Positions 39,857 to 62,853 of a stretch of DNA of 64,000 bases are shown piece after piece. The notes under the pieces are model-generated. The model did not search any database. It saw nothing but the letters and a program-made list of their open reading frames with translations, and was not told the origin of the DNA. Position 1 is the stretch's first letter. Each line of letters begins with the position of its first letter. A program made the translations under genes and the position numbers. This DNA comes from a virus. The stretch lies in IMG/VR virus record IMGVR_UViG_3300008108_000098; one strand, given 5' to 3'.

Positions 39857-39857
39857 A

Positions 39858-40670: not shown

Positions 40671-40774
40671 CTCGAAGAGTTTTATAGATTTTCAAACCCA
40701 TTATGGGTCTCAATCGAAAATCCAATCATTGTCTCACTGGTGATTGGGCTAAATGTGAAAGAAAAAATCTATAC

Positions 40775-40862
40775 GGAGAGATGGCAGAGTTGGTCTATCG
40801 CACTTGACTTGAAATCAAGAGAACGGGAAACTGTTCCGTGGGTTCGAATCCTACTCTCTCCG
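40775..40862 (+). tRNA. tRNA-Ser (TGA), long variable arm
   Basis: Hand-folded. Anticodon stem CTTGA/TCAAG, loop CTTGAAA, 88 nt. Confidence 0.8.
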
Positions 40863-41224
40863 CATTAGAAAAGTATTTATTACTATGATCATCGTAGTAA
40901 TAGTTAGTGGAATGTTAATTGGATATATTGTAGGTTGTTTTTTTCTCGATAGATGGATTAATAACGAATCAGAACACATAGATAACCAATAAATAAAACT
41001 TATGACACCAAGGCAGTACAATGAATTAATGAGACAAGCTGATGTTCTTGAAAAAGATAAAATAAACAAAGAATTTCATGATTTGTGGGAACAGTTTACA
41101 ATTGAAAACCCAAATACTATTGGTGGTTTTAAAGAACAATTTGAGTCATTTAAATGGTTGTGGTTTAAATTAAAAGAAAATAAGAAATATTAAATATTTA
41201 ATTAATATAGGTGACTAATCATAA

Positions 41225-47781: not shown

Positions 47782-47910
47782 TATGGATATGTTTCAATTT
47801 ATTTGGGGATTCTTAATAGGAATCGGAGTAGGTTTTATAATTGGGTTGCTTATAGCAAAACGAATTGTAAAAGATACAATTAGAAAAGTTTTAAATAATG
47901 TGAGACCATG
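47782..47910 (+). CDS. small YneF/UPF0154-like membrane peptide (42 aa)
   Basis: Translates MDMFQFIWGFLIGIGVGFIIGLLIAKRIVKDTIRKVLNNVRP. ATGA overlap with the next gene. Not in the ORF track. Confidence 0.4.
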
Positions 47911-48222
47911 AGCAATTTTAATTTGGTACCAGACAACGGTAGTTTGACAATGAAAGGAAGTGGTTTGGTGAAAATCAAAACCCGAATAAAGATTTATGGT
48001 ACGGGTACGGAATTGCCGGTGGAGATTACTGCAGACTTTAACAACATACCACATCATTTACACCAATCCTATCTTCAATCCTTAACCTACCAATACAATA
48101 CATCGGTTAGTGTATATAACAACACAGAAGAAGAACCATACCCAATGACAATTAAAGAGAGACAAAGGGAATGGAGATTGAATAAGATTGTGGATATTAT
48201 TTGTAAAGGATTAAAAAAATAA
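47908..48222 (+). CDS. hypothetical protein
   Basis: 104-aa ORF. Confidence 0.4.
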   Translation: MSNFNLVPDNGSLTMKGSGLVKIKTRIKIYGTGTELPVEITADFNNIPHHLHQSYLQSLTYQYNTSVSVYNNTEEEPYPMTIKERQREWRLNKIVDIICKGLKK

Positions 48223-48225
48223 AAT

Positions 48226-48411
48226 ATGTCAGGAGATATTGAAATGGGTAAATGTGATTTCTGTAAAGAAATTAAACCTGTACAAAGAACGTACTTGGAA
48301 CCAACCAAATATTCAAAACCCGAACATCCCAACAATGTTAAATTATATAATGAGGGTAATTACTTTTTCATTATAAGAACTTGCAGTGATTGTGGTGAAC
48401 CAAAAATATAA
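48226..48411 (+). CDS. zinc-ribbon small protein
   Basis: Motifs CDFC ... CSDC. Confidence 0.4.
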   Translation: MSGDIEMGKCDFCKEIKPVQRTYLEPTKYSKPEHPNNVKLYNEGNYFFIIRTCSDCGEPKI

Positions 48412-48498
48412 ACATATGTCACAATCAGATGGGATTTTATTTTTTATTGCAATATGGATTCTTGGATTTTTGGCTGGATACTTTAAAGGAAAAAATAA

Positions 48499-49098
48499 AT
48501 GATAGACAACATTGAATTAATAAAACCATTATTAAACTTTGAGAAAGAAGGTGACTTCTATATGCTTTATGTTTTCAAACGTAAGAAAGATCAACCAGAG
48601 GATGAGAGAGATAATCATCAGTCGGTAAGAACTATTAAAACATATTGTATTGAAAGTATTGATCATCTTAATAGAAGGTACGATGAAATCAAACAGTTAT
48701 GTGAAATGTTCAAAGCACGTGCATACATTCATGTTCAGAAACAGAATCACTTTGACGTATCATTGAGTATGATGGTTGATCTTGCTCAACGAATTCAGAA
48801 TGGACAACACAATCAAAAAGGATTGTTTGATAGTGTTGTTGGTCAAATTAAAACACAAGAAAAAAGATGGATTGTTGATTTAGATACAAAGGATGAAAAT
48901 GAAATTGTAAGAATGACTAAAGTAATCAATGTTACAAGACCTGAAGGTGATAAAATTGAGGCAATTATTCCTACAAAGAATGGTTACCACTTTATCACTA
49001 AAAGATTTGATGTTCAGATGTTTGGTAATGTTTATCCTGATATTGATATTCAAAAAAAGAACCCAACATTACTTTATCTTCCAAATTCTTTAAATTAG
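48499..49098 (+). CDS. hypothetical protein
   Basis: 199-aa ORF. Confidence 0.45.
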   Translation: MIDNIELIKPLLNFEKEGDFYMLYVFKRKKDQPEDERDNHQSVRTIKTYCIESIDHLNRRYDEIKQLCEMFKARAYIHVQKQNHFDVSLSMMVDLAQRIQNGQHNQKGLFDSVVGQIKTQEKRWIVDLDTKDENEIVRMTKVINVTRPEGDKIEAIIPTKNGYHFITKRFDVQMFGNVYPDIDIQKKNPTLLYLPNSLN

Positions 49099-49404
49099 GA
49101 AAATAATATGATACAAAAACTTTCAATAAAAGGATGGAGAATAAACTTTGTTTTCAGACACAAGTTTGAAAAAGAAATGGAACTCCTTGACAAAATGCGT
49201 TGGAATAAATACGAACTTGGACTTTGGTTTAAGAAATACAAAGCAATTGGTCGTCCCAAAGAAGGTCCAGCAATAATCGGAAAGGATGCACATTTAACCA
49301 ATTGTTATATGTTCGGAGTTGAGTTACTCATTTGCAAGTTTTGGATAGACATTTCCTATAGACCACTCACATTAAAGATTGATTAAATTTTAAAAACAAA
49401 TAAT

Positions 49405-49740
49405 ATGAAAAATCAAATGATTGAAACTGAAATTAACTATGACTACATCAATGCTTTGGTAGAAATTGAACAAAAAAAAGCAGAGTATGAAATGGGTCAT
49501 CCGTTACCAACAATAGCACAAACATTTATTGAACTTGGTCAAAAAAGAGGTATAGCCATAGATATTGAGTATGGCGTATCTAAAAACACGGTTGGATATT
49601 TTATTACCGCCTTTGACAAGAGATTATTTCTACCTGATTTATGGATAGAAGATAATTCTCCTTCTAATGTAGCTATGGCTACACAATGGTTTGAAAATAT
49701 GCTCAACAAATTATCTTCCCCTAACACACAAAACAAATAA
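49405..49740 (+). CDS. hypothetical protein
   Basis: 111-aa ORF. Confidence 0.4.
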   Translation: MKNQMIETEINYDYINALVEIEQKKAEYEMGHPLPTIAQTFIELGQKRGIAIDIEYGVSKNTVGYFITAFDKRLFLPDLWIEDNSPSNVAMATQWFENMLNKLSSPNTQNK

Positions 49741-50179
49741 TATGAAACTATATACAGAAGAACAAGTAAAGAACTTTCTTAAAGAAAGAACATTTATGAC
49801 AGAAGATGCTATTGATAAATTATGTGCTCCTTTGACACCAATAGAACTACCAAGTGATGAGTATATTGATGAAGTATTTCAACCAATGACAGAGTTACAC
49901 CAATATTACAAAGATGGGTTTATTAATGGTGCTAAATGGATGAAAGAACAAATACTTAACCAAAACAAATAATATGTCACAACAAACACCGGTGGAGTGG
50001 CTTGAGAAATTATACAAAGAAGGGATATTGATTCCCAAATCATTTGAATTGGCCAAACAAATGGAACAAGATATTATCTCCGAGTCATGGAACGATGGAA
50101 ATCTAATTGGAAGGAATGGATGGATCATAGAGGAATATAGCACGGGGAAACAATATTATAAGAAGAAGTATAAGGATAA

Positions 50180-50497
50180 ATGAAATCATTTAAGTTTTTG
50201 GATAACAATGGGGATGACTACACCTTAATACCTGATGAAACGGCATCATGGATGTGGCATAATGACTTTATGTTAAGAGATAACATAGAGGGTTACACTT
50301 GGCAGTTAAAAACAATTAGGTGTGATGGAATAATCAATTTTTTGAATCAGTTTCCAAATTTGTACATTGTTCCCGTATATTCGATCACGGGGAATAACAT
50401 TCGTCACGATTCATTTAATCAGGGACACGGCTGGGGTTTTAATATACAAACGGAACATTTAAATATAGAATACTTTCAATTGGTACCAAATAATTAA
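50180..50497 (+). CDS. hypothetical protein
   Basis: 105-aa ORF. Confidence 0.4.
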   Translation: MKSFKFLDNNGDDYTLIPDETASWMWHNDFMLRDNIEGYTWQLKTIRCDGIINFLNQFPNLYIVPVYSITGNNIRHDSFNQGHGWGFNIQTEHLNIEYFQLVPNN

Positions 50498-50554
50498 ATA
50501 GTTTAGGTGATAGTGTGTGAAGATGGAGAAATATAATAGGATATTTATAAGGAT

Positions 50555-50953
50555 ATGGATAAGATTGACACAGAACATAAAAAAGGAATACGTGATCTTG
50601 CGATTATGATGGAAATTATCATAAGAGATGGAATGGAGGATATTCATGCGAGTGGTGAACTTGATCAGGAGGATATGAAGAGTATGAACATATCCCTAAG
50701 AAATAATTTCTTTACTTATTTAACAAGAACTAATAAATTTGACATCCATGATGTTCACGGTATGTTAAAGAAGGTCATGTTACCATTTCGTGATAAGGTT
50801 AAAAATAAACGAAACTTTGATAAAGCACTTTTAAATGCGGTTCACGAATTGAGAACAATATTAAAAGACGCCCTTAAAGACCCGAGTATTTTAAGTATAC
50901 TATATGCGAGGGTAAAAGGATTTAAGTACGAGGAACCTGAATTTATAATATGA
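50555..50953 (+). CDS. hypothetical protein
   Basis: 132-aa ORF; ATGA overlap with the next gene. Confidence 0.4.
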   Translation: MDKIDTEHKKGIRDLAIMMEIIIRDGMEDIHASGELDQEDMKSMNISLRNNFFTYLTRTNKFDIHDVHGMLKKVMLPFRDKVKNKRNFDKALLNAVHELRTILKDALKDPSILSILYARVKGFKYEEPEFII

Positions 50954-51294
50954 AAATCTTAATCACCGAGCAACAGTATAATAGATTGATGGAAGGGTTT
51001 GTGGACATTCCGGTGGAGGAAGATATTACACTTGAACTATGGGAAGATAAGAATAGATTGGAACTATCCACAATAGTAATTCCCAAACATCTAAGAGGTC
51101 AGGGTAAGGGAACTGAGATAATGAATAAGGTTATTGAATACTCCGAACAAGTTAACAAACCGATCTATCTAACCCCTGACACCAGTTTCGGGGGAACATC
51201 TATAAACAGACTTAAAAGATTCTATAGAAGATTCGGATTTACAAAGAACACAGACCAAGAGGTTTCACATAGTATGGTGAGATATCCTAATTAA
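50950..51294 (+). CDS. GNAT-fold acetyltransferase-like protein
   Basis: N-terminus MKILITEQQYNRLMEGF; motif RGQGKGTEIM...FYRRFGF. Confidence 0.5.
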   Translation: MKILITEQQYNRLMEGFVDIPVEEDITLELWEDKNRLELSTIVIPKHLRGQGKGTEIMNKVIEYSEQVNKPIYLTPDTSFGGTSINRLKRFYRRFGFTKNTDQEVSHSMVRYPN

Positions 51295-51414
51295 GAAAGT
51301 CCTCACCTGTAATGGGTGGGGATAATTGGGAGAGAATAGAGAGATAGGTACCAGAAGACAGGAAAGATTTTCACTTCTTTAAAGGTTCACACTTTCCCGA
51401 ATAGATCCCCTGAA

Positions 51415-51432
51415 GGGGTCCGTCAGGACCCC
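51415..51432. other. perfect GC hairpin GGGGTCC-GTCA-GGACCCC
   Basis: Seen directly. Overlaps the CCCCTGAAGGGG hairpin at 51407-51418. Confidence 0.7.
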
Positions 51433-51682
51433 GTAAATTACCCCCGATTTATTCCGTCTAACTACCCTGAAAACCCTATAAAATTCCCCCTGTTTTTAGG
51501 TACATTTTGTCGTAGTTATTTTATATACAGATATAACCATATAAACTTGTTAAATTCCGTGTAGGATATATACCAGCCACGATTTGGGGAAAAAGTGGGG
51601 AAAAGTGGTAATATGTGGGGGATTGACCCTTGCGTGAATTAAGACCCATATTATAAAAATTTATATGCATAACTGTTATTGC

Positions 51683-51699
51683 GGGGTCCTTCGGACCCC
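51683..51699. other. perfect GC hairpin GGGGTCC-TTC-GGACCCC
   Basis: Same stem sequence as 51415. Confidence 0.7.
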
Positions 51700-51847
51700 T
51701 TCAGGACTGACATAGTGTCCGTTTTCATTATATATACGTATATATTATATGTGTAATACGGTGAGTGTCATACGATTAGTTTCTACTTAACATAATCGTA
51801 GTTATAAGACACAATATAACCCCCTCACGTCATACGAACGGGATGAA

Positions 51848-51866
51848 GGGCCACCGAAGGTGGCCC
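51848..51866. other. perfect GC hairpin GGGCCACC-GAA-GGTGGCCC
   Basis: 8-bp stem, seen directly. Confidence 0.7.
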
Positions 51867-51911
51867 GTAATTCTGTTTAACTTTTTAAGATCGTTGTTTA
51901 AACAACTATTA

Positions 51912-52006
51912 ATATTGTCTGGCAAATGTCATACGAAGTTTTTGCCAAACAATATTGGCGAGGACCAGTCTGACCCCAGTGTTGTCATACGAATGTTGTT
52001 TGGCAA
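51912..52006. repeat. IR-family copies: ATATTGTCTGGCAA ... TTGCCAAACAATAT ... TTGTTTGGCAA, with GTCATACGAA x2
   Basis: Seen directly. Same half-sites as the copies in the 52-64 kb block. Confidence 0.65.
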
Positions 52007-52018
52007 AATGGTCGGGTA

Positions 52019-52987
52019 TTAACTAAAGTCGATTTCGTATTTAGCGAACTGTTTTTTTAGGTGATCTTTAATTTCTCTATAAAGGTCCCAATCATCAGTT
52101 GCTGTAAGTGGTTTCCCGTCATACGACTCAAATGACGCAGTAAGTGAAATACTATAATCGGGGATGATGGTATTTGTTCGAGGGTCTATCAATGTTGCGG
52201 GATTATAGTCGTATTTGCTGGTTGAATATAGATATATACCATTACCCATACCCATTCGTAATACGTATGGTTTCCCTTTGTACATACCCTTGGATAATGC
52301 TTTGAGAATTACTTTTCCTCTTTTAACGGATCTTAATCTTTCCTCATCAAAATTATCAGAGAACTTAGCAATTAAGTTTTCAGGGATAACAAGTGTATTA
52401 CGAATGGCCTGTCTTTGAAAACTATTTAAATCATTAAACGACTTAACCTCTTGTTTGGGTACGTCGAATATGTTTTCCTGTATTGTTTGTCCGTGACCGA
52501 AAAGAAACTTCATATCTAATTCCGTCATCAAAGTTTTTGCAACCTGACTTGGAATTACTTCTCTTAAATTAAAATTAAACGAACCATTGTCATACGTTCT
52601 AAACCCTTCGATTGGATAATCCACATCTGGCATTGACATTGACATTTTACCATTACCTATGGCTTCATTGGTGAACAGGTGTAATCCATGTTTTATACCT
52701 AAGTTATATATGTGTACAAAAATATCGAACATACATGTGGGACTTATTTGTGCACCTCCGTCTAATCTAAAATCAGGTAATATTCTTAAGTTACCCTCAT
52801 GGGAACTACTTGAGCTGATTGCACATTTTGCTTCAGCGTTTTCAATTCTGAAGTCTAACGATGAAAAGTCTTTTGAAATTTTAAATATAGCCTCTTCAAA
52901 ATCAACCTTACTATCATTGAATTCAAATTCCTTCTTTGGTTCTTGGTTCTCCCCGTCTTCCATTAGTATGTCATACATCTTGATCAT
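52019..52987 (-). CDS. hypothetical protein
   Basis: Start moved to the first ATG (MIKMYDIL). The track start is a TTG inside the repeat. Confidence 0.45.
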   Translation of the reverse strand: MIKMYDILMEDGENQEPKKEFEFNDSKVDFEEAIFKISKDFSSLDFRIENAEAKCAISSSSSHEGNLRILPDFRLDGGAQISPTCMFDIFVHIYNLGIKHGLHLFTNEAIGNGKMSMSMPDVDYPIEGFRTYDNGSFNFNLREVIPSQVAKTLMTELDMKFLFGHGQTIQENIFDVPKQEVKSFNDLNSFQRQAIRNTLVIPENLIAKFSDNFDEERLRSVKRGKVILKALSKGMYKGKPYVLRMGMGNGIYLYSTSKYDYNPATLIDPRTNTIIPDYSISLTASFESYDGKPLTATDDWDLYREIKDHLKKQFAKYEIDFS

Positions 52988-53056
52988 AATAATAAATACT
53001 TTTGCCAAACAATATCTACCGTCTTCTTGGATCCTGAATCAGGAGACACTGTTTAA

Positions 53057-53083
53057 TAAAAAAATCCCAAGTGCAGACTTGGG
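53057..53083 (-). terminator. intrinsic terminator (minus): CCCAAGT-GCAG-ACTTGGG plus U-run
   Basis: 7-bp stem. A-run on the plus strand gives a U-run for minus-strand transcripts. Confidence 0.65.
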
Positions 53084-53149
53084 GGTCTACACGTTGGGAT
53101 TTAACGACCGATATATAATTAAAGGGCTTTAAAACCCTCAAATCATATA

Positions 53150-53338
53150 TTAGGCTGTTGCAAGGAGCTGATTGCGATAAGCAATTGCATTTCTCTTAGA
53201 AGAGAAATTCTTGCTGTATTTAGTTCCAGCTACACTTACACGTACACGATAGGATGAACCATCGAAGTACACATTGCTTGAAACCGGTACATAAGTAGTT
53301 TTAGTACGACGGTTTCGGTTGGTTGTTGATTTTTTCAT
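53150..53338 (-). CDS. AP2/integrase-arm-type DNA-binding domain protein (62 aa)
   Basis: YFDGSSYRVRVSVAGTKYSKNFSSKRNAIAYRNQL fits the 3-strand-plus-helix AP2-like pattern. Confidence 0.5.
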   Translation of the reverse strand: MKKSTTNRNRRTKTTYVPVSSNVYFDGSSYRVRVSVAGTKYSKNFSSKRNAIAYRNQLLATA

Positions 53339-53639
53339 ATAACATTTGGTTTATATTAAAATATAACATCCAAAAGTCATAAAAAAAAATATCCGGCAAC
53401 TTTTTTTAAAAAAGTTTTTGCCAAGCAATATCGCCCGATCATCTCCTCCCTCAGGGTTTCTTCTTATATCGAGAACCCCACTTGATGGACATGTATGCAT
53501 CATACCTGTGTCTCTTCATCCCATTGAAGAGAAAGTACACAAAGTAGTAATCCCAAATCCATTCCAACTCTTTAAAGAACTTCTTCATAAGCATAATTTT
53601 GCCAAACAATATCCGACAGACTCATCCTGATCTGAACCG

Positions 53640-53840
53640 TCAGATATTATTATGATACTCGAGATCTTCTTTGTTTATTGATTCAAGATTGAACTCATCG
53701 TACAATTGTTTCAGGACCCTGAGTTCACCTTCAGATCGATACTCTTCTTCAGGGCTGTCGAAATATCCTAAATCAATTCTGTTTGTTAATGAGTCGATCT
53801 TAGTAACGATCCACAACATTAAAATGGGTTTATTTATCAT
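53640..53840 (-). CDS. hypothetical acidic protein
   Basis: 66-aa ORF. Confidence 0.35.
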   Translation of the reverse strand: MINKPILMLWIVTKIDSLTNRIDLGYFDSPEEEYRSEGELRVLKQLYDEFNLESINKEDLEYHNNI

Positions 53841-53886
53841 GATATAATAGTTTTACAATTTTATGGGACAAAAAAAAGGACTCTTG

Positions 53887-54474
53887 TTAGAGTCCGTGTA
53901 AAGCTGGATGAATCTTTCCTTTTACTCCCCTTGGTCGATACTTACCCTCCTCATCGATGTAGAAGTCAATAATCAATCCAACCACCTTACGGTTAACTCT
54001 TGCCACATACAGTGTATATGACCCATCTCCAATTCCTGAACGAGTCACCACACCATTTTCATATGAACCCCACTCAAGTTTTGCTAAAGTGATCTTACAC
54101 ATCTTCAGGTACCAATCGTCCCCGTCTTTGGTGACAGGAAGCTCGAACGGTCTTCCATCATATGTTTCTGTTGGTACATCCATATCAATACCGTCGACTC
54201 TGTAAGTTTCCTTACTGAAGATACCGGCCTGACCTGAATCAACACCAATCTCAGCAGAATACTTTCTCCACGTGAGATCCTGATCAAGATAATCCTCGTG
54301 GATAGCTGTTAGATACGCAATTCTGTTGCCCCAACCATCTGTTTCCATTTCAGTGGCATTAGCAACATAGGATCCAGGTAATACATTCTTTACAATGGCT
54401 TGGCACCAAGTTGGAATGGTGTAGCAGGGATCGGATACTACTACTTCTTTTCCGAGTGTGATTTTGTTTGTCAT
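53887..54474 (-). CDS. hypothetical protein
   Basis: 195 aa. Start embedded in the conserved TATTCGTATGACA context. Confidence 0.5.
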   Translation of the reverse strand: MTNKITLGKEVVVSDPCYTIPTWCQAIVKNVLPGSYVANATEMETDGWGNRIAYLTAIHEDYLDQDLTWRKYSAEIGVDSGQAGIFSKETYRVDGIDMDVPTETYDGRPFELPVTKDGDDWYLKMCKITLAKLEWGSYENGVVTRSGIGDGSYTLYVARVNRKVVGLIIDFYIDEEGKYRPRGVKGKIHPALHGL

Positions 54475-54479
54475 ACGAA

Positions 54480-54710
54480 TCAGGGTTTTAATGTTTCTAA
54501 TATTCTTTCGTAAATCTTTCTTGTTAAAGAACTGTCCACTGTTCCACCAGGTATTACACGGTCCCTACAGACGATATCACCTGATAAACAATCAACCTCT
54601 TTTACCAAAACAGAATCAAAAAGTATTGGAGATGGGAATCTAACAATACCCTTTGTTCCTTTTGATAATCCAACTTGGAGTGCTTCATTTCTAAGCTCTA
54701 AGAATTCCAT
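54480..54710 (-). CDS. hypothetical protein
   Basis: 76-aa ORF. Confidence 0.35.
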   Translation of the reverse strand: MEFLELRNEALQVGLSKGTKGIVRFPSPILFDSVLVKEVDCLSGDIVCRDRVIPGGTVDSSLTRKIYERILETLKP

Positions 54711-54746
54711 ATGATAAAGGTATTACATTAACTGGAATATTCCAAA

Positions 54747-55247
54747 TTAATTTGTGATATTTTTATAGATGCTTTCGTACTTCTTGATATTCTCCTGAAT
54801 TTCAACATCCATAGCTTTTACTAACTTGGAATATGCTTTATCCATAAAGTCCTGATTGCCAGACAATTTATCAAGATCACCGTCCCAAAACTCGAGGTTA
54901 TCTACAATGACACGTATATCCTTAGTTGTCTTATCAGTTCTAAAAAATGGACAACGAGCGTAGATATATTCATTACGTACTATGTTGAGCTTGATGTCAT
55001 CGTTCGTCAGATTTTCCTTGGACCTGATTTGCATGATGATCACTTCAAGATCAGCAAGTTGCTGAATCTCTGTCTTTGTCTTCGTGATTAGATCCTGATA
55101 TGATTTAACAAACTGACCCAACTTCTTGGATTCCTTATTTGCCAGTGAACTTCCATAATCCATGAACCTGTCGTAAGAACTTTTTTCTTTTTCATTACCT
55201 ACGACATTTACAAACACACCTTCGATGTTCTTGTTTACTCTACCCAT
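54747..55247 (-). CDS. hypothetical protein
   Basis: 166-aa ORF. Confidence 0.45.
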   Translation of the reverse strand: MGRVNKNIEGVFVNVVGNEKEKSSYDRFMDYGSSLANKESKKLGQFVKSYQDLITKTKTEIQQLADLEVIIMQIRSKENLTNDDIKLNIVRNEYIYARCPFFRTDKTTKDIRVIVDNLEFWDGDLDKLSGNQDFMDKAYSKLVKAMDVEIQENIKKYESIYKNITN

Positions 55248-55478
55248 AATTGCAGTTTTTGTTTTTTGTTTTAAAAATTATTTTGCCAAACAATATTGGA
55301 CATCTCCTCAGATCTGTTGTTCTTGAGATGTTCAATGTACTCGAGAAACGTCATTCCGAATCCATTCGGAACATCGTGCAACCTCCTACCGACATTGAAT
55401 TCGTTAATCCAATCTTGTTCCGATGGTTGATCCACGGGATACGTGCTTGTCATGATGTTAATACTCATTTGTTATGAT

Positions 55479-55709
55479 TTAACGGTTATAAATTTTTTTA
55501 TATTCCTTATCGGTCAAGAACCTGAAAGGTGAAGTAATCTTCTTACCAAGAAGCAAGAGTCCCATCACATGGTCAATTTTCTCGATGTCATCAATAAGAG
55601 CTCGATTACCCTGTGCAGGATGTTTGATGTTGTTGATTGTTGTGTACAATCTTTCTTCGATGGAATCAACTACATAAGTTGACTCGAAGGTTTCTTTTTT
55701 CTTTGCCAT
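55479..55709 (-). CDS. hypothetical protein
   Basis: 76-aa ORF. Confidence 0.4.
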   Translation of the reverse strand: MAKKKETFESTYVVDSIEERLYTTINNIKHPAQGNRALIDDIEKIDHVMGLLLLGKKITSPFRFLTDKEYKKIYNR

Positions 55710-55721
55710 GGTTTTTTGTTT

Positions 55722-56140
55722 TTAAAATTTAGTTACGAAAAGTTTATAATCAACTGTACCGATTTCAATGAAACTAAGGTTATCCGCATTTACACTATCA
55801 TTATAAATCCAATTGGGATTCTCTCTCGGATTATATTTCAACCTAACACACATGGAGTACGTGTCATACGGATCAAACCCATCAAACTTTACATCTATCG
55901 AATCACACAAGATCCATGCACAAACTGTCTTGTGTTCACCGTCAAAGATCTTCTGTGCGGTCTTCTTATTGTTCTTGAGTGTACATCCTTTCATCACGAG
56001 CTGCGTTGATGTAGGTGATACATATTCCACCTCACCAGATGGATACTGTATTTTCCATTTCATATAATTCTGACCTCGCCCAAGATTAAAACGAACTTTA
56101 ATTTTCTTGCTCATGTTTTTGATCTGTGTCATACGAATAA
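55722..56140 (-). CDS. hypothetical protein
   Basis: Start moved to MTQIKNMSKK at the conserved TATTCGTATGACA motif. Confidence 0.45.
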
Positions 56141-56207
56141 TATTAGGAGTTACAAAGATATAACAGGGATACGAATATACCAAATATATCCCTGTTATTT
56201 TTTTATA

Positions 56208-56987
56208 TTATTGGATTACAAATTTATTTGTATCCACGAGTTTATTTCGGACCCGTTTAAATTTCAAACCGACAATGACGTTTTTATCATCTCTGTACCT
56301 CATGTCATAAAGATCTCCATTGATTACAGGACGACCCCAAAAGGTTTCGGGTACATCTTTAAAAACTACCGCCACCCTGATGTCATTGTTCAACATACTA
56401 ATACAGTCCTGAAAATTAGAACCACTGTAGGAAAATGTGATATCATAATTCGGATACTTCTTTACCAACTCCAAACGTTTAGCAACCTTTGTGTAATCGT
56501 AAAATTGAACGTCAGAAAAGATCTCCAAAATATTTTGTTTGCGACCGTCAACATCTAAGTAAAATGATTCAGGTGAGATGTCACTCGTGTTATTCAGACG
56601 TACACTGAAATGAAGATCTTCATTGATCGATCTTTGCCAGGCATTATAGATCTCATCGATCATCCACTTCATAAAGAATTCTCGATGTTCAAAAAACAGT
56701 TTTGTCTTCTTGATTCGTGATGCATTAATCTTGTTCTCCTTAACGTCCATTTTATTACGCCCTGATTCATTCAAACACAATTGTGTACATTCAGGGGTCC
56801 TTTTCGGACAAACTTCGTATCCACTCATTTTAGCAGGTGCGAGATAAAGTGTGTAAACAAGTTCGTCATACTTATAAGCTTTCTCATGTTTGGTCGAATT
56901 GTTAACCATTCCGAGGTATGACAAACCTGTCAACTTCTTTGCTTGTGCAATTGATTTGTATTCCATATAATTTGATTTGTGATACAA
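56208..56987 (-). CDS. hypothetical protein with Cys cluster (CPKRTPECTQLC)
   Basis: 259 aa. TATCTTTG -7 box upstream. Confidence 0.5.
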   Translation of the reverse strand: MYHKSNYMEYKSIAQAKKLTGLSYLGMVNNSTKHEKAYKYDELVYTLYLAPAKMSGYEVCPKRTPECTQLCLNESGRNKMDVKENKINASRIKKTKLFFEHREFFMKWMIDEIYNAWQRSINEDLHFSVRLNNTSDISPESFYLDVDGRKQNILEIFSDVQFYDYTKVAKRLELVKKYPNYDITFSYSGSNFQDCISMLNNDIRVAVVFKDVPETFWGRPVINGDLYDMRYRDDKNVIVGLKFKRVRNKLVDTNKFVIQ

Positions 56988-57016
56988 AGATATAAATTTT
57001 ATTTAATTCTACAAAA

Positions 57017-57628
57017 TTAATCCTCAGCTTTAGCAACTTCCTGCATGTCCTCAATAAATTGTGCAACAGATTTAGGGAGTTGTTTCAGGTCATATGACTT
57101 GATCATTTTAACAGGTGAATACTCTCCCTCATTTTTCATGTGATAAAATCTATCTTCTTTAGTTAAAGGATTTGTATTAAAACCCTCATAGATCTCGAAA
57201 GTATTCTTATCAAGGTCGATAACATAAGCCCACTCACAGAACAAACTATCTGCAGCAAAATCCTCGCTATTGTTCAGCCAAATAAGTTTATCCGTGTCAT
57301 CCTCATAAACCATGTTCAAAATATTTGCACCATTGTCACGAGTAAGGAGTGGATATTTTTTATGATACTTTTGTGCTTGTTCACCATTCATCCAACCATC
57401 AGAAGCGTCGATTTTTGCCAGAAAATTTTCCATCTCCTTTTGCTTCCGTGGACTCTTTTCAATAAATCGGCAACGTTCCAAAGTTTGTTTAAACTTTTCC
57501 ATGTCGGAGTTCAACAAAAATTCTACAACTGTTACCCCTTGTCCTGATGGATACCCATCCCATTGTCCGTACTGTGCGATCTTGGTTTCTCCGTTTGAGA
57601 TTACCATCGTGAGGTTTCTTGTTCCCAT
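57017..57628 (-). CDS. hypothetical protein
   Basis: 203-aa ORF. Confidence 0.5.
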   Translation of the reverse strand: MGTRNLTMVISNGETKIAQYGQWDGYPSGQGVTVVEFLLNSDMEKFKQTLERCRFIEKSPRKQKEMENFLAKIDASDGWMNGEQAQKYHKKYPLLTRDNGANILNMVYEDDTDKLIWLNNSEDFAADSLFCEWAYVIDLDKNTFEIYEGFNTNPLTKEDRFYHMKNEGEYSPVKMIKSYDLKQLPKSVAQFIEDMQEVAKAED

Positions 57629-57640
57629 GTGTGTGTTTAT

Positions 57641-57961
57641 TTAAAGTAAAGCAATGATTTGTTTTCTTTTATCTACGTATTTTACAAGTCGTTTGATAAA
57701 TGCATCGGCACCCTGTTTGCTCTTGAAGTAAGCAAAGAATTGACAGTACTCACTATCCTCGTCCGCAGATTTAGTAAGAACTTTGTTTTCTTTAAGACGT
57801 TCAACAACATCGTAATTACTTTCGCAGTTGTCAAATGTTTCGAGTGCTCTAAGATCTGCAGTGACGGTCCAATGTTTGTCATCACTACCCTTGTACGGTT
57901 TCAAACTTTCAGCCTTAAATGATCTCCCTTCTGTTGAGAGAGAATAGAATACTTTGTCCAT
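57641..57961 (-). CDS. hypothetical protein
   Basis: 106 aa. First gene behind a class B promoter. Confidence 0.45.
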   Translation of the reverse strand: MDKVFYSLSTEGRSFKAESLKPYKGSDDKHWTVTADLRALETFDNCESNYDVVERLKENKVLTKSADEDSEYCQFFAYFKSKQGADAFIKRLVKYVDKRKQIIALL

Positions 57962-57981
57962 GGTTATAATGTTTTAGGATA

Positions 57982-58039
57982 CAAATATACTACGTATAAA
58001 TTGATAATCCAAATTTAATTTGTTAAAATTTTGTGAAGG
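57982..58039 (-). promoter_or_regulatory. class B promoter: CCTTCACAAAATTTTAACAA element, -33 TTG, TATATTTG -7 box
   Basis: Bacteroidetes-type TTG-N20-TAnnTTTG. Near-identical copies at 59548, 60297, 62615 and 63605. Confidence 0.6.
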
Positions 58040-58066
58040 TGAATTCACCTGTGCCGGGATTCGTTG

Positions 58067-58119
58067 ATATTGTCTGGCAAGTCGAGTAGATCCCGTCCAA
58101 CCTATTTGCCAAACAATAT
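58067..58119. repeat. inverted-repeat pair ATATTGTCTGGCAA-N25-TTGCCAAACAATAT
   Basis: Seen directly. 31-nt right arm plus flank identical to 60418-60448. Confidence 0.7.
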
Positions 58120-58163
58120 CCTTAGCTGTTGCTGCGCACAGTAGAAGATGAGGTAACAGCAAT

Positions 58164-58191
58164 AAAAAACCCCCTGAAACCAGGGGGTTTT
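58164..58191 (-). terminator. bidirectional intrinsic terminator: A6-CCCCCTG-AAAC-CAGGGGG-T4
   Basis: Perfect 7-bp stem flanked by A- and T-runs. Confidence 0.8.
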
Positions 58192-58226
58192 GACACTTAC
58201 TAAACCATTAGAAAAAAAACCAAATG

Positions 58227-58460
58227 TTACTTCTTTTTCACAGTAACGATTTCGAATAGGTTCTTATAGTTGTTATTTATAATTTCATCTTGGTACATCA
58301 TAGCATCATCTAATGAAAGTTTGGACTTTGATATTTCCCAATTCTTCTTTGTTTTAGATGTCCATACTTCCCAATACTTTTTCGCATCGTCTAATTTGAT
58401 ACGAACGAAAACTTGTTTGGAGTGATCAAACAATGCTTTTCTTTTTTCTGGTTCTACCAT
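58227..58460 (-). CDS. hypothetical protein
   Basis: Start set to the ATG (MVEPEK). The track start is a TTG. Confidence 0.4.
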   Translation of the reverse strand: MVEPEKRKALFDHSKQVFVRIKLDDAKKYWEVWTSKTKKNWEISKSKLSLDDAMMYQDEIINNNYKNLFEIVTVKKK

Positions 58461-58646
58461 ACGTTTGTTTTTTTGGTTATGCAAAAGTAGTGAAATATAT
58501 TAAATAAACAATAAAATATTTTAAATGTTTAATTTTAGGTAAAAAAAAACTAAACAAATCTTTTATCTAATTGATTACCATTGTCATACGAATTGCCAAA
58601 CAACTTGTGCGATCGGATTTCCCGCTGCGGGTTTTAGGTAATACAA

Positions 58647-58673
58647 ATAAAAAGGGACACCTTTCGGTGCCCC
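58647..58673 (-). terminator. intrinsic terminator (minus): GGGACACC-TTTC-GGTGCCCC
   Basis: Stem with one mismatch. A-run on the plus strand. Confidence 0.6.
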
Positions 58674-58704
58674 TCTGTTCTTACTAACACTATTCACAAC
58701 AAAC

Positions 58705-59490
58705 TTAAATCAAACGAAGATTCAACTTCTCATTTTCCCTACGGCGATAATTGTAAATGTCCTCAATCATCACAGAGTAAGCTCTCTTATCACCGCAAAG
58801 ATGAATTGAACCCGGACGAAGTTTAACCTTATGGATAAATTCATCAAACTTAAATCCCTTCTTCTTCTCGGCAATAGTGAGAATTGCTCTCACAAAGTTT
58901 GACTTATTGTACCCCTTTTCAAAGTAAGGTTTAATTTCAAGAAGGTGATTTGCCCACTTCTCAGCGGTTTTCACACTTGCGATATTAAACTTACCTTTTT
59001 GGAATTGCTCCGTACTTGGATGCTTTGTTCCGCTATTTTGCAGAAGCATCATTCTTTCGGTAAGTGAGAACATTGGGTACTTATCACCAAACTCTTGGAG
59101 AATTTGGAAGTTCTCATTTCCCATTTCGGAGTAACCATGAATATAATCGTTCTTACGAACTTTCTTCTTCCACATATTATATTTGAGGAAGGCGTCAAAG
59201 ATACCCTTTTTGGTGAGAGGAATTTCCTCATCAATTACATAATACACACCAACACCCGCGAGTCTTGCTGCGGACAATCTATGTTGTCCATCGGCAGTCC
59301 AATGAACACCATTCTTATCTTTTCTTGTTACAACAATAGGTTCAGTATAACGAAACCCATTGACCTTCATGTCATCAGCGATTTCACGAATTTGGTTTTG
59401 AGATTGAGAATCCGTGATTTCACGATTAACTTTTACGAGTTGAAATCTATCAAGATTCGTTTCGTAGAGAATACTTTTATTCTTACTCAT
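58705..59490 (-). CDS. ParB-like nuclease (ParB/Srx) domain protein
   Basis: Motifs YTEPIVVTR ... ADGQHRLSAARLAGV. Confidence 0.65.
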   Translation of the reverse strand: MSKNKSILYETNLDRFQLVKVNREITDSQSQNQIREIADDMKVNGFRYTEPIVVTRKDKNGVHWTADGQHRLSAARLAGVGVYYVIDEEIPLTKKGIFDAFLKYNMWKKKVRKNDYIHGYSEMGNENFQILQEFGDKYPMFSLTERMMLLQNSGTKHPSTEQFQKGKFNIASVKTAEKWANHLLEIKPYFEKGYNKSNFVRAILTIAEKKKGFKFDEFIHKVKLRPGSIHLCGDKRAYSVMIEDIYNYRRRENEKLNLRLI

Positions 59491-59547
59491 AGTAAGTGAT
59501 GTTCAGAACACCTGTCCCCGTGTTTGTTGTGAATTTGTTTACGAGTA

Positions 59548-59618
59548 CAAATATATAACATTAATAACTCCAATCCAAATTTATTTTTTTATATTCTGTT
59601 AAAATAATGTTAAGGTAA
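59548..59618 (-). promoter_or_regulatory. class B promoter (TATATTTG) with degenerate upstream element
   Basis: Plus-strand CAAATATA at 59548-59555. 5' UTR shares AAACACGGGGACAGGTNTTCTGAACA with the 63566 copy. Confidence 0.5.
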
Positions 59619-59672
59619 TACAAATGATATCTTGATGACACCAGTCTGATCGCCTGGGCTGCCTGGGCAATG

Positions 59673-59725
59673 TTGTTTGGCAAATTGATCTACTCGAGAT
59701 CTCCTCACTGTTAATTGCCAAACAA
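59673..59725. repeat. degenerate IR pair TTGTTTGGCAA-N31-TTGCCAAACAA
   Basis: Spacer contains GATCTACTCGAG, the reverse complement of the spacer in the 58067 copy. Confidence 0.55.
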
Positions 59726-59762
59726 ATTTCGTAATCCGATGACGATCGTCAACATCTTGGAA

Positions 59763-59792
59763 ATAAAAAAGGGAGATACGAAATGTATCTCC
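59763..59792 (-). terminator. intrinsic terminator (minus): GGGAGATAC-GAAAT-GTATCTCCC
   Basis: Perfect 9-bp stem with A-run. Confidence 0.75.
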
Positions 59793-59872
59793 CAAACAAA
59801 ACACCAAACACAGATTATGAACAACTAATAAAATATAGTTATATTATTTCAATAAATCAAGTGTACTATCAA

Positions 59873-60079
59873 TCAAATAGTTTTGAATGTACAATAATCT
59901 TCTAAACGATCTAATGAAATTCTACCATAGTTTGTTGAACTATAATAACCTTGAACGGAATACCTTTGTTTCCATTTGTTGAAGGACTCCATCATTTGTT
60001 TCTTTGATGGATATGTCCACTTGTCGAACTCAATAGTAAAACCATCGGGTGACAATACTTGATACTTTTTATTTTTCAT
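59873..60079 (-). CDS. hypothetical protein (68 aa)
   Basis: Start set at MKNKKYQ. 11-nt overlap with the upstream gene. Confidence 0.4.
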   Translation of the reverse strand: MKNKKYQVLSPDGFTIEFDKWTYPSKKQMMESFNKWKQRYSVQGYYSSTNYGRISLDRLEDYCTFKTI

Positions 60080-60278
60080 CTTCTTGTGTTTTAATAATTG
60101 TTTGTGAATATTCAACCTCAATTCGTGTATCCATATGTTGCATACCACTATATCGGTTTTGTCTATGAATTTCGACAACCGAATGTCCACCAAATGGTTT
60201 CCATCCTTCTTGAATAAATTCATTTACTTTTCTTGTCAGTTCTTCGGGAGAACGTGATGATACGATTTTGTATTCCAT
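60069..60278 (-). CDS. DUF1737-like small protein
   Basis: MEYKIVSSRSPEELTRKVNEFIQEGWKPFGG pattern. Confidence 0.45.
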   Translation of the reverse strand: MEYKIVSSRSPEELTRKVNEFIQEGWKPFGGHSVVEIHRQNRYSGMQHMDTRIEVEYSQTIIKTQEDEK

Positions 60279-60296
60279 TGTTATTAATTTAGATTA

Positions 60297-60354
60297 CAAA
60301 TATACAACGAATAAATTAATATTCCAAATAATAATTGTTAAAAATTTGTGAAGG
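60297..60354 (-). promoter_or_regulatory. class B promoter
   Basis: Contains TTGTTAAAAATTTGTGAAGG ... TTGGAATAT ... TATATTTGTA. Confidence 0.6.
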
Positions 60355-60389
60355 AAATCAATGGTTTCAGCCGATCTGATTCGGCGCCA

Positions 60390-60440
60390 ATATTGTTTGG
60401 CAAGTGAATATGGTCGTCCAACCTATTTGCCAAACAATAT
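60390..60440. repeat. IR pair ATATTGTTTGGCAA-N23-TTGCCAAACAATAT
   Basis: Seen directly. GC hairpin GCCGA-TCTGAT-TCGGC sits just upstream. Confidence 0.7.
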
Positions 60441-60473
60441 CCTTAGCTCACGGTACCCCAAATTGCACAAAAC

Positions 60474-60497
60474 AAAAAACCCCAGCAAGTGCTGGGG
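60474..60497 (-). terminator. intrinsic terminator (minus): CCCCAGC-AAGT-GCTGGGG
   Basis: Perfect 7-bp stem with A6 on the plus strand. Confidence 0.75.
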
Positions 60498-60524
60498 TAA
60501 ATCAAAAACACTATGAAAACAAAA

Positions 60525-61223
60525 CTAACTTTCCAACTCCAAAAGAGTTTTATATTCTTCTTCGGTAAGGTGTCGTGTATTTTCACTTCTTACTCCTTCC
60601 TTCTTCTTAATCAAAATACAATCACCTTGCCTAACAATCTTTTCAATACAACCCTTTGGAATATCAGTTTGAATTGTCCAAGCAATTGCGTCAATTGCCG
60701 TGATTTTACTTCCATAATCATCTTCACTACTATACCAACGATTTGTTGTTCTGTTATCGTTTGTTTCAAACACACTACGGGCGTCAATCCAAATCATATA
60801 CTCTCTATCGGTTGAGGTGTCTTTACACTTTACATAATAAACTGGTTGTGGTTTCCGCCAAGCGTTCTCAACTCCTTTACTCCAAACATCGCCATCTACT
60901 TTGTAAAGTTCATAAGTATCGTTGAACTCTTTTGTAATCAACTCACCACTTTGAGTTACCCAAGTAGTTTGTTTCTTCAAAGTTTCCTTATCAATCAATT
61001 TAGGTTTGACTTCTTTAACCAATCTTTCCAATCCAAGACAACCAACCGCCACTCGTCTCTGTTCTGTATTACGAAACAATGTGGCAATTTCTTTGAAGGT
61101 CATTGGAACAATATCGTTCCAAATATCTTCAATCTCTTTCATTGGACATTCGTTATATTTCAATTTCAAAAGGCGACAACCTTCGTTGTACGGAAATTCA
61201 ATGTTGTTGATAATAATTTTCAT
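60525..61223 (-). CDS. hypothetical protein
   Basis: 232-aa ORF. Confidence 0.5.
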   Translation of the reverse strand: MKIIINNIEFPYNEGCRLLKLKYNECPMKEIEDIWNDIVPMTFKEIATLFRNTEQRRVAVGCLGLERLVKEVKPKLIDKETLKKQTTWVTQSGELITKEFNDTYELYKVDGDVWSKGVENAWRKPQPVYYVKCKDTSTDREYMIWIDARSVFETNDNRTTNRWYSSEDDYGSKITAIDAIAWTIQTDIPKGCIEKIVRQGDCILIKKKEGVRSENTRHLTEEEYKTLLELES

Positions 61224-61244
61224 TTGTTTTGTTTTTAATTGTTT

Positions 61245-61925
61245 TTAATCTTCGCTTGGTCTGTAAATAGTAAAACTGCGACTGACTTGAATTGTAATAC
61301 CTTTCTTTGTGAACTCCATATCTGTTTCACTATTTTCCAAGTTAGTAGTCCAATTAAACCACTCACTCGCCTCGCCATTAGTATCTTCGTTTGTGAAAGT
61401 ATGAGTGTCGGCTTCATATTCAAACTTTTTCAAAAGTTTATCAATGATATTAGCTTCATCATTGTTAATCACACAATCAATTTTGTAATTAACATTCTTC
61501 TCGCCATCACCGCCATTCATACTACCAATCTTTGATTGTAATACTTCCTTTTCTTCTTTACTCAAAACAACTTCAAAAGTATCAGTAAAGGTTTCACTAA
61601 ACTCAGCCTGAGCGTCTTTGTGATAATCAAAGTCAGGTTCATCTTCATCATCATTAAATGTAATGATAACCTTACCAGCTTCACCCATATAGTAGCCATC
61701 ACTATTCACATAGAACTCCACACGCTTAAACACTTCGTCCTCAAAGAAATTTTTAAGTTCTTCTGTTTTCTTATTACTAATCTTCTTTGCTTTACTATCG
61801 TAAAAATTAAATTCATAGTCGTTCATACTATCGCCACCAGCGGAAAATTCCATTTCACACTCAGCGACTTTTGCTTCTTTCCAAAGCAACATTTCGGGGG
61901 TAAGTTTCAAGTTTTCAGTTTGCAT
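61245..61925 (-). CDS. highly acidic protein
   Basis: Asp/Glu/Phe-rich. Start trimmed to MQTENLK. Confidence 0.45.
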   Translation of the reverse strand: MQTENLKLTPEMLLWKEAKVAECEMEFSAGGDSMNDYEFNFYDSKAKKISNKKTEELKNFFEDEVFKRVEFYVNSDGYYMGEAGKVIITFNDDEDEPDFDYHKDAQAEFSETFTDTFEVVLSKEEKEVLQSKIGSMNGGDGEKNVNYKIDCVINNDEANIIDKLLKKFEYEADTHTFTNEDTNGEASEWFNWTTNLENSETDMEFTKKGITIQVSRSFTIYRPSED

Positions 61926-62313
61926 GAATTTTGTTATTAAGTTGTTGAACAATAAGTTTTCCTTCTTCGGTATCAAGTTCTTTTACTCCATTACACATCC
62001 AGGGTTGGACTTCCAAATGTTTCAAATAATCTTGTGGTGTTGGTACGAACTTCATACGAAAGTCCTCTGCGATATGTAACATCGCCACATCAACTACATC
62101 AACACTTTTGCCATCACTATTAGTGATATTGTAACCAAAAATTTTTGGTACAATAGTATAAGCGAACCAAGTGTTATGAGTAAGGAGCCGTGAACTATTA
62201 TTGTTCATTGTCGCTTTTGGACTATCAATCAATTCGTGGATAGCGAGGTAATCTTCTACTTTACCACCCCAACGCTTGACCGAAGATTTTGAATGAATGA
62301 GAGGATTTGCCAT
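61915..62313 (-). CDS. hypothetical protein
   Basis: 132-aa ORF. Confidence 0.45.
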   Translation of the reverse strand: MANPLIHSKSSVKRWGGKVEDYLAIHELIDSPKATMNNNSSRLLTHNTWFAYTIVPKIFGYNITNSDGKSVDVVDVAMLHIAEDFRMKFVPTPQDYLKHLEVQPWMCNGVKELDTEEGKLIVQQLNNKIHAN

Positions 62314-62331
62314 AGTGTTTTGTTTTGTTGG

Positions 62332-62595
62332 TTAATCCCAAACTCTTTCAATAGTTTGTGTAAATGGATTGTACTCAACTTGTTTTCCCATTGACCACTC
62401 ACCTTTTTCAATTTTCAATGTTTGGTGTTCATTACTGAATGAGCCGTCAGGTTGTTCGTGTTTCAACAAACTATCTTTTGTTACAACCAGATCAGTAAAT
62501 TCGGTTTCCGTTTCATCAATTTTGAAATCACCATACAAAGTGTGTTGATTTACTCCTTCACCTTTGAGGAGCGTGTGTTTCTTTTTTGCTTTCAT
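62332..62595 (-). CDS. hypothetical protein (87 aa)
   Basis: First gene behind a class B promoter. Confidence 0.4.
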   Translation of the reverse strand: MKAKKKHTLLKGEGVNQHTLYGDFKIDETETEFTDLVVTKDSLLKHEQPDGSFSNEHQTLKIEKGEWSMGKQVEYNPFTQTIERVWD

Positions 62596-62614
62596 TGTTT
62601 AATAATTTAGAATA

Positions 62615-62672
62615 CAAATATAAAGATAATAAATGAATAAAACAAATTTATTTTGTTAAAATTTTGTGAAGG
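62615..62672 (-). promoter_or_regulatory. class B promoter
   Basis: Contains TTGTTAAAATTTTGTGAAGG ... TATATTTGTATTC. Confidence 0.6.
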
Positions 62673-62698
62673 AAGAAGACAGGTGTGGCCCAGTTTTG

Positions 62699-62800: not shown

Positions 62801-62853
62801 TAAAAAAACCCCACCATTTCTGATGAGGTCTTTCTATTATGAACCACTAATGT

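Follow-up and report, generated by a model that had tools for sequence, protein, structure and literature searches.

A dif-like site beside a conserved, hairpin-bracketed non-coding core at a convergent gene junction of large uncultured Bacteroidota-type phages

Within the 64,000-nt stretch of viral DNA analysed here (IMG/VR record IMGVR_UViG_3300008108_000098; hereafter the 64-kb window), the largest gene-free stretch is a 724-bp gap at 51295-52018, flanked by a gene for a GNAT-type acetyltransferase on the left (50950-51294, +) and a 322-aa open reading frame (ORF) on the right (52019-52987, -). With moderate confidence, we read this gap as a composite cis-acting DNA locus of large uncultured Bacteroidota-type phages, in which a terminus-like, genome-dimer-resolution function would be combined with insulated protein binding. 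Its best-supported function, judged from sequence, would be that of a resolution site used by the host Xer recombinases and lying beside an insulated, putative protein-binding core. An earlier note on this DNA had described the gap as the largest non-coding stretch at a switch from + to - strand genes and had taken it for more than a plain pair of terminators. Gap size and convergent gene ends were verified, all sequence features that the note had listed are present where it had placed them, far above chance, and both the conservation of the region in relatives and its position at an inflection of the GC skew bear out the broader view. Two things had escaped it, namely that both of its GGGGTCC hairpins lie inside one larger inverted repeat of 27-28 nt (51409-51436 and 51679-51705) and that the gap contains a dif-like site. 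Coordinates are collected in Table 1.

The dif-like site first became visible in an alignment of the right part of the locus among close relatives, as a conserved TTTAACATAAT-N6-TTATAGG that reads xxxxCCTATAA-N6-TTATGTTAAAT on the minus strand; its XerD arm in these relatives is identical to the XerD arm of E. coli dif. When scanned with a position weight matrix (PWM) made solely from the arms of 11 predicted Bacteroidetes chromosomal dif sites (PMC3025954 supplement), the window site scored 22.1 bits, compared with 19.4-30.8 bits for genuine dif sites and 10.0 bits for the next best position in the window. In simulated 64-kb sequences, PWM maxima averaged 12.6 bits and reached 19.3 bits at the highest. 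The 28-bp site contains the inner inverted ATAA/TTAT dyad, is intergenic, occurs once per related locus and only once in the window, and sits at the maximum of the cumulative GC skew, at 51-52 kb. Across 22 related loci, the top-scoring site (16.5-30.0 bits) lay +195 to +571 from the start of the core, always on the same strand, and combined near-invariant arms with eight different central hexamers (CTACGA, CGTACT and CGTGTA among them). Such a pattern, with arms conserved and the centre free to vary, characterises the core sites of tyrosine recombinases.

By sequence, the window site is a close match to the chromosomal dif of Bacteroidetes and unexpected in a big tailed phage. With Bacteroidota chromosomal dif sites (PMC3025954) it shares the 28-bp 11-6-11 layout, the inner ...TATAA / TTATG... 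dyad and an intergenic location, once per stretch examined, at the shift point of the GC skew; its XerD-type arm, TTATGTTAAGT, is that of Pedobacter heparinus. It differs from them in lying on a phage genome and in having a GC-containing, variable hexamer in place of the near-invariant TTTATA. The predictions of Kono et al. 2011 include AAGTCCTATAA-TTTATA-TTATGTTAAAT for a Flavobacteriaceae bacterium and TAGTCACATAA-TTAATA-TTATGTTAAGT for Pedobacter (PMC3025954), and the arms of some relatives of the window are identical to the Flavobacteriaceae pair AAGTCCTATAA ... TTATGTTAAAT. Chromosomal dif sites are located at the GC-skew shift, and homologues of XerC and XerD exist in Bacteroidetes (PMC3091885). 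In the literature searched, no paper on dif-like sites in large tailed phages was found; Xer use is documented for small single-stranded DNA (ssDNA) phages, including those of Bacteroidetes (PMC3091885).

As such phages exploit XerCD to enter the chromosome, the site might instead be an attachment site, through which either the phage itself or a plasmid-like form would insert at the host dif in the manner of filamentous vibriophages and Bacteroidetes microvirus proviruses (PMC3091885; PMC3025954). The closeness of its arms to those of Bacteroidetes chromosomal dif speaks for this, and in carrying a dif-like sequence that the host XerCD would recognise, the window phage resembles CTX-phi, VGJ-phi and the Bacteroidetes microvirus proviruses (PMC3091885). 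These, however, are small integrating ssDNA phages in whose sites the XerD arm is usually degenerate or the centre long, whereas the window phage has an intact XerD arm, a centre unlike the host dif and a double-stranded DNA genome of 178 kb, and no integrated copy was found: a pattern derived from the most conserved core box (block E) returned only chance 20-mers and no copy of the core from 185,579 bacterial and archaeal genomes. Xer-based integration would also be without precedent for genomes of 178-335 kb. Moreover, the centres vary freely and share no XerC-proximal identity with the predicted TTTATA. We consider integration at the host dif unlikely; that all centres differ from the host-type TTTATA argues for resolution of phage-phage dimers instead.

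In the resolution reading that we favour, host XerC and XerD would bind the two 11-bp arms and, wherever one molecule carries two copies of the site, for instance when a phage genome that is plasmid-like or replicates as a circle has dimerised, strand exchange across the 6-bp centre would release monomers, the centre's departure from TTTATA disfavouring crossover with the host chromosome. Plasmid Xer sites (ColE1 cer, pSC101 psi and Acinetobacter pdif) are comparable in that they lie on a mobile replicon and join host-type arms to a centre of their own, which lets the host recombinases resolve multimers without crossover with the chromosome. Cer and psi differ in that they require some 180 bp of accessory DNA next to the XerC arm, to which PepA binds together with ArgR or ArcA; at the phage locus, the conserved core is instead found next to the XerD arm, and a hairpin (H3) and motif arms occupy the XerC side (51813-52000). 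Unlike the alternating arrays of pdif, each phage locus has one site. If the dif-like site works, a lineage of large phages (contigs of about 80-335 kb, seemingly mostly from lake metagenomes, as judged from sample names only) would depend on the machinery with which its hosts resolve chromosome dimers, which would suggest that phages of otherwise virulent appearance pass through a circular stage, possibly as a plasmid-like form or in a carrier state. Its arms would also provide a handle for host prediction, through their match to the dif arms of candidate hosts.

Relatives of the locus were reached by way of a motif of its right-hand part. A 15-mer scan with ATATTGTTTGGCAAA gave mostly single chance matches, yet also yielded the first relative (L046), a 335-kb viral contig with a 234-bp stretch 80% identical to 51567-51796. 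Further relatives came from profile searches and from two patterns, one describing the hairpins and the other a 20-mer taken from the most conserved box (GGGATTGACCCNTNCGTNAA), so that the element is now represented by about 65 viral and metagenome loci (more than 60 phage or metagenome contigs), with nhmmer E-values between 1e-19 and 1e-59 where the core was matched over all or nearly all of its length. Wherever gene maps were drawn (17 loci), the junction is convergent, with rightward genes ending 10-250 bp left of the element and leftward genes several hundred bp right of it. Genes on the right side are syntenic among relatives; those on the left have essentially no homologues.

The core of about 280 bp is as conserved as the best neighbouring protein. 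Its conservation is organised in blocks, comprising a C-rich box, TTTTGTCG, TATATACCA-CCAC-ATTT, a repeat block, a near-invariant GGGGATTGACCCTT-CGTGAAT box and an AT-rich tract of variable length, with GGGATTGACCC as a near-invariant box. The direct G-rich repeats that the earlier note had pointed out (51587-51609, plus GTGGGGG at 51615-51621) fall into the repeat block, which reads GGGGAAAAAGTGGGGAAAAGTGG in the window, takes the form of the reverse complement, CCCACTTTCTCCCAC, in a clade that we call C-type, and is replaced by an AT-rich repeat in a third group, while the sequences flanking it keep their orientation in all clades. Short phased repeats that are inverted between clades fit protein-binding DNA rather than an RNA helix. 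In the favoured reading, phased repeats, an invariant box and an AT-rich tract would together turn the core into a binding platform, and the core might serve as accessory region, terminus or origin.

Neither protein nor RNA signals were detected in the core. Six-frame translation of 28 non-redundant core homologues left no frame open across all of them, and a 49-aa minus-strand ORF of the window is not conserved. On either strand, RNAalifold found 3-4 base pairs and no consensus fold, and the folding energy of the window core was that of shuffled sequences (z-scores of -0.09 and +1.02). At gathering scores, Rfam 15 returned from the whole window only four tRNAs, all elsewhere; with E-values of up to 10 admitted, no more than three matches, all at chance level, came from the region. 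The structured non-coding RNA envisaged in the earlier note thus found no footing in the conserved core, which by its sequence characteristics is an element functioning at the DNA level, not as RNA or protein.

The main live alternative to the favoured reading, and one compatible with the rest of the picture, is that the core is a replication origin, its repeats binding an initiator, its AT-rich tract melting and its hairpins excluding transcription or acting in priming, with the dif-like site as a neighbouring maintenance function, as in plasmids with a resolution site near the origin. We hold this to be possible, if tentative. The order of repeats, conserved box, AT-rich tract and GC palindrome resembles the layout of lambda-type and iteron origins, the type and orientation of the repeats differ by clade, as for a specificity module, and transcription would be kept out of the core from either side. 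At block C, 6 of the 28 non-redundant relatives have a perfect DnaA box, TTATCCACA (shuffle mean 0.08), and matches with at most one mismatch number 18 among the relatives compared with 3.1 expected. In the window, by contrast, the core repeats are 1-2 mismatches away from a DnaA box at best and DnaA boxes occur at chance level (33 vs 30.5 expected), for which reason an enrichment in the window was rejected. Lambda ori, P1 oriR and plasmid oriV likewise combine phased short repeats next to an AT-rich tract with a palindrome, lineage-varying repeats and, as here in some relatives, DnaA boxes; unlike them, the window has no adjacent initiator gene, its DnaA box is degenerate and it lies at a convergent junction at the skew maximum. 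No initiator, helicase or primase gene was found nearby among the ORFs scanned, and AT-rich tracts such as that between block E and H2 are ordinary in a genome of 30% GC. The geometry is also of the terminus type, the origin-type counterpart being a divergent switch at about 12.5 kb. Of the origin or terminus suggested in the earlier note, the terminus is now really strengthened by the dif-like Xer site where skew and gene orientation switch, and the origin is possible.

Modules composed of TGAAGG, a GC stem usually with a GAA loop, and CCGYA occur three times in the window (H1-H3). They enclose the perfect hairpins first described in the earlier note, GGGGTCC-GTCA-GGACCCC (51415-51432), GGGGTCC-TTC-GGACCCC (51683-51699; start-to-start distance 268) and GGGCCACC-GAA-GGTGGCCC (51848-51866); the GGGGTCC...GGACCCC pattern is found twice, with 0.00 occurrences expected in shuffles. 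A covariance model built from relatives, with H3 inside and H1 and H2 outside its training set, scored the three modules at 31.8-43.6 bits in one orientation only and the rest of the window at 10.6 bits at most. Even the flank pattern TGAAGG / CCG(T/C)A by itself has just three matches in 64 kb (0.48 expected), all of them at the hairpins. This exclusivity extends to the relatives, where 52 modules lie within -400 to +1200 of the core (20 loci) and none in the other 276 kb, and all 15 exact matches to a generic pattern among 2.9 million viral contigs adjoin the core, including contigs longer than 300 kb that have no other copy. By pattern search, 15 of 20 loci have a minus-oriented copy directly right of the core and 6 of 20 a plus-oriented one directly left, with further copies rightward. 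Together, core and modules are unannotated, strongly conserved DNA elements without a described counterpart.

The 8-bp stems of the modules covary, with 98% of cells paired, 23 double changes and no one-sided (G-T type) change in 168 cells; the copies compared had been pre-selected for hairpin potential, and in the window the flanks alone pick only hairpins. One subclass of the module, seen in relatives (e.g. L127, L222, L281 and L316), retains a tandem GA/GA mismatch inside the stem (GGACC-GA-CC GAA GG-GA-GGTCC), with the pairs on either side covarying, which suggests, at the level of sequence, that a specific shape is recognised and not mere stability. Covarying stems and the retained GA/GA mismatch are also what speaks for structured RNA, with the hairpins as terminators, stabilisers or protein-binding stem-loops and the core as an RNA gene, as does a near-consensus sigma-70-like promoter match pointing leftward at 51771-51744. 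Against this stand the missing Rfam family and consensus fold, a repeat block inverted between clades without a compensating partner, and hairpin helices without G-U intermediates; with Bacteroidota-type host promoters, moreover, a match to the sigma-70 consensus weighs little. We regard the RNA reading as very unlikely.

In the favoured reading, the outward-facing, oriented GC hairpins would bracket the core and stop transcription arriving from both gene blocks. They share with intrinsic terminators the GC-rich stem-loop, the location at convergent 3' ends and the orientation-specific placement, which could mean that the gap holds only two or three convergent terminators and a neutral spacer. 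However, the supposed spacer is conserved like the best neighbouring protein in more than 60 contigs, and the hairpins differ from intrinsic terminators in lacking a T-run, in their conserved flanks TGAAGG and CCGYA and in being confined to one locus, other operon ends of the window having canonical T-run terminators. A scan for consensus terminators found none in the 724-bp gap and a single match in 50000-53500, at 53083-53066. Conservation and exclusivity contradict the plain-terminator reading, to which we give hardly any credence.

More speculatively, this part of the genome may be organised like the terminus of a bacterial chromosome, with dif at the skew switch, G-rich repeats that load or orient an FtsK-like translocase, and directional hairpins as barriers to transcription or replication forks. 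The oriented cluster of G-rich repeats would lie on the XerD side of the dif-like site, and the hairpins would surround a core bound by protein. We think such a terminus-like organisation rather improbable; if true, the phages would have a stable life stage as a circular, plasmid-like molecule, and the core and the TGAAGG-hairpin-CCGYA modules would make up a class of cis-element not described before.

Several observations weigh against the favoured reading. GC skew tracks gene orientation and also flips at other strand switches of the window. It is their orientation alone that suggests the hairpins as transcription stops, and their 3' flanks (CCGTAA or CCGCAA) contain no T-run in a window where canonical T-run terminators occur. 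Among the window ORFs scanned there is no integrase, ParA or replication gene, although a ParB-like gene lies about 7 kb away. A virulent phage with headful packaging would have no obvious need for dimer resolution. Finally, no dif-like site was detected in any of 29 C-type loci (fetched DNA; five mismatches allowed, or PWM), all of which have the core and hairpins, so the function of the core cannot depend on the site.

The locus separates a hypervariable gene block from a conserved block of early genes, and it is at this border that metagenome assemblies of these phages are prone to break. Among 42 complete metagenome contigs, 18 end within 300 bp of the core (7.8 expected), 16 of these on the hypervariable left side. 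Such ends could reflect a packaging or injection feature, namely a pac/cos site, a terminal-repeat boundary or a signal that halts injection after a first-injected early block as in phage T5, and the leftward block indeed consists of small genes with many promoters. Like the gap, the injection stop signal region of T5 is large and untranslated, is full of direct and inverted repeats, palindromes and DnaA-box-like units, and lies where a block of small early genes ends (Davison 2020, bioRxiv 10.1101/866236). Unlike in T5, which has no dif-like site and no sequence similarity to the locus, an ordered set of DnaA boxes (eight within the terminal repeat of T5) is absent from the window. The break points range over model positions 22 to 174 and also lie 0-219 bp upstream; being scattered and on the unconserved side, they are read as assembly forks between strains rather than a fixed DNA end. 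Furthermore, no terminase gene lies nearby, and a 178.6-kb contig and several contigs of more than 300 kb run uninterrupted through the locus. We judge a packaging or injection feature quite improbable; a fixed genome end was rejected, and the pac/cos site considered in the earlier note received no indication.

Table 1. Features mapped in the gap at 51295-52018 of the window
Feature	Position	Strand	Remarks
Extra G-rich repeat unit GTGGGGATAATTGG	51316..51329	+	Minus strand TTATCCCCA, 1 mismatch from DnaA box
H1: CCTGAAGG-GGTCC GTCA GGACC-CCGTAA	51409..51436	+	Left core edge; sense for rightward transcription; 31.8 bits
Conserved non-coding core, ~280 bp	51431..51718	.	Homologous syntenic elements in relatives; no ORF, no conserved RNA structure
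Block A, C-rich conserved box AAATTACCCCCGATTTATTCCGTCTAAC	51434..51465	+	From alignments
Block B TACATTTTGTCGTAGTT	51501..51517	+	TCG invariant; TCGTGATC, GATC included, in many relatives
Block C ATATATACCAGCCACGATTT	51567..51586	+	DnaA box position in some relatives; degenerate in window
Block D, phased G-rich repeats GGGGAAAAAGT / GGGGAAAAGT GG ... GTGGGGGA	51587..51622	+	Spacing 10-11 bp
Block E GGGGATTGACCCTTGCGTGAATTAAGACCCAT	51617..51648	+	Most conserved box, many invariant columns; unique in window
AT-rich tract between block E and H2	51649..51678	.	Length varies among relatives
H2: minus strand CCTGAAGG-GGTCC GAA GGACC-CCGCAA	51679..51705	-	Sense for leftward transcription; 33.4 bits
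AT palindrome ATTATATATACGTATATATTAT, then conserved motif TATATGTGTAATACGG	51727..51762	+	TATATGT[A/C]ATAC form in nearly all relatives
Four GTCATACGA copies	51767, 51829, 51928, 51984 (51767..51992)	+	Belong to 10-copy single-strand family
dif-like XerC/XerD site, GTGTCTTATAA-CTACGA-TTATGTTAAGT, 11-6-11	51785..51812	-	XerD-type arm towards core; 28 bp
H3: ACGGGATGAAGG-GCCACC GAA GGTGGC-CCGTAATTC	51838..51870	+	43.6 bits
Cluster of motif family ATATTGTTTGGCAAA	51894..52008	.	Palindrome TTGTTTAAACAA 51894-51905; arms 51911-51926 (+), 51940-51956 (-), 51992-52008 (+)

At its right end, the locus would carry an operator- or promoter-like motif cluster of the leftward gene block. The 12-bp palindrome TTGTTTAAACAA and the inverted-repeat arms recognised in the earlier note belong to it, TTGTTTAAACAA consisting of abutted half-sites of the ATATTGTTTGGCAAA motif, and equivalent pairs of arms are found at the same locus in relatives. 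With at most one mismatch, the family TTTGCCAAACAA has 18 copies compared with 1.2 expected, and ATATTGTTTGGCAAA is limited to the leftward gene block (window 51915-63687; copies e.g. at 53001, 53417, 53598, 55282, 58105, 58592, 59673/59714, 60393/60426, 62745 and 63676). Some copies stand singly, 10-40 nt ahead of leftward genes and behind GC-rich DNA that contains GATC; others form inverted pairs 21-35 nt apart. To judge by sequence and placement, ATATTGTTTGGCAAA resembles a promoter or operator motif specific to this block and differs from the host promoter TAnnTTTG, of which the gap has no exact copy and only two variants longer by one base. Readings of the TTGGCA motif as a sigma-54 or extracytoplasmic function (ECF) sigma factor promoter were rejected by eye on account of spacing.

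Three copies of GTCATACGAA, likewise noticed before, and a variant, GTCATACGAT (at 51767), make up the GTCATACGA copies of the gap. The window contains 10 copies of GTCATACGA compared with 0.23 expected, all on the + strand and all within 51767-63672. Read on the minus strand, the element is TCGTATGAC, often follows ATATTGTTTGGCAAA, and its ATG can be a start codon, suggesting a shared promoter-plus-start cassette or very short leaders. Outside the gap, copies occur at 54470, 56128, 58583, 62733 and 63664, the ATG starting several leftward genes (e.g. 53887-54474); the copy in 55722-56183 implies a gene shorter than the 153 aa called. Two near-identical segments of ~55 bp, TGTCGATCGCAGCG[T/C]GCGCATGCGCCGATATTGTTTGGCAAAGATTCGTATGACA, lie 931 bp apart at 62700-62760 and 63630-63690 and represent a duplicated regulatory cassette with a GCGCATGCGC palindrome.

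Around the gap, the GNAT protein is identical on the 178,617-bp JGI contig Ga0568938_000001 of 3300057212 and on other contigs, and all six contigs fetched share 100% identity throughout the region. No match to the region came from BLAST against phage and plasmid collections, and in the phage collection the closest isolated phages, reached through a neighbouring GP88 protein, show at most about 40% identity. For the 329-aa right-hand neighbour, no relatives were found in viral contigs, and local BLAST gave weak homologues from one clade; Pfam and PHROGs returned no match for neighbouring small proteins. A 62-aa protein without family match (53150-53338, -) is 57-95% identical in 33 related loci; as the most conserved protein near the locus, it is a candidate partner of a DNA element. 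On the other side of the core, gene content at 47908-51294 is not conserved in relatives, and metagenome contigs tend to stop there.

The window as a whole has a GC content of about 30%, four tRNAs and many small ORFs of unknown function; the ORFs scanned include virion-protein, sugar-modification, methyltransferase and thymidylate-synthase genes. Upstream of many genes lies the Bacteroidota -7 promoter motif TAnnTTTG (TTTG ... TAnnTTTG, e.g. before 17445, 27776, 38844, 56966, 57961, 58460, 59490, 62595 and 63555), so the host is probably a member of the Bacteroidota. The tRNA genes (Trp, Met, Asp, Ser) are clustered at 39524-40863, where the second-largest gene-free gap of the window (718 bp) is found with tRNA genes inside it. 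Two large PcfJ-like proteins (17445-19247 and 19294-20688, +) and a ParB-like protein (58705-59490, -), together with a DUF932 protein on a related contig (L331, 3860-4708), form a set more usual in the leading regions of conjugative plasmids than in phages. Elsewhere, the run of rightward genes is broken at 4322-12187 (-) by a leftward block with glycosyltransferases, a nucleotide-sugar epimerase and methyltransferases, which locally reverses the GC skew.

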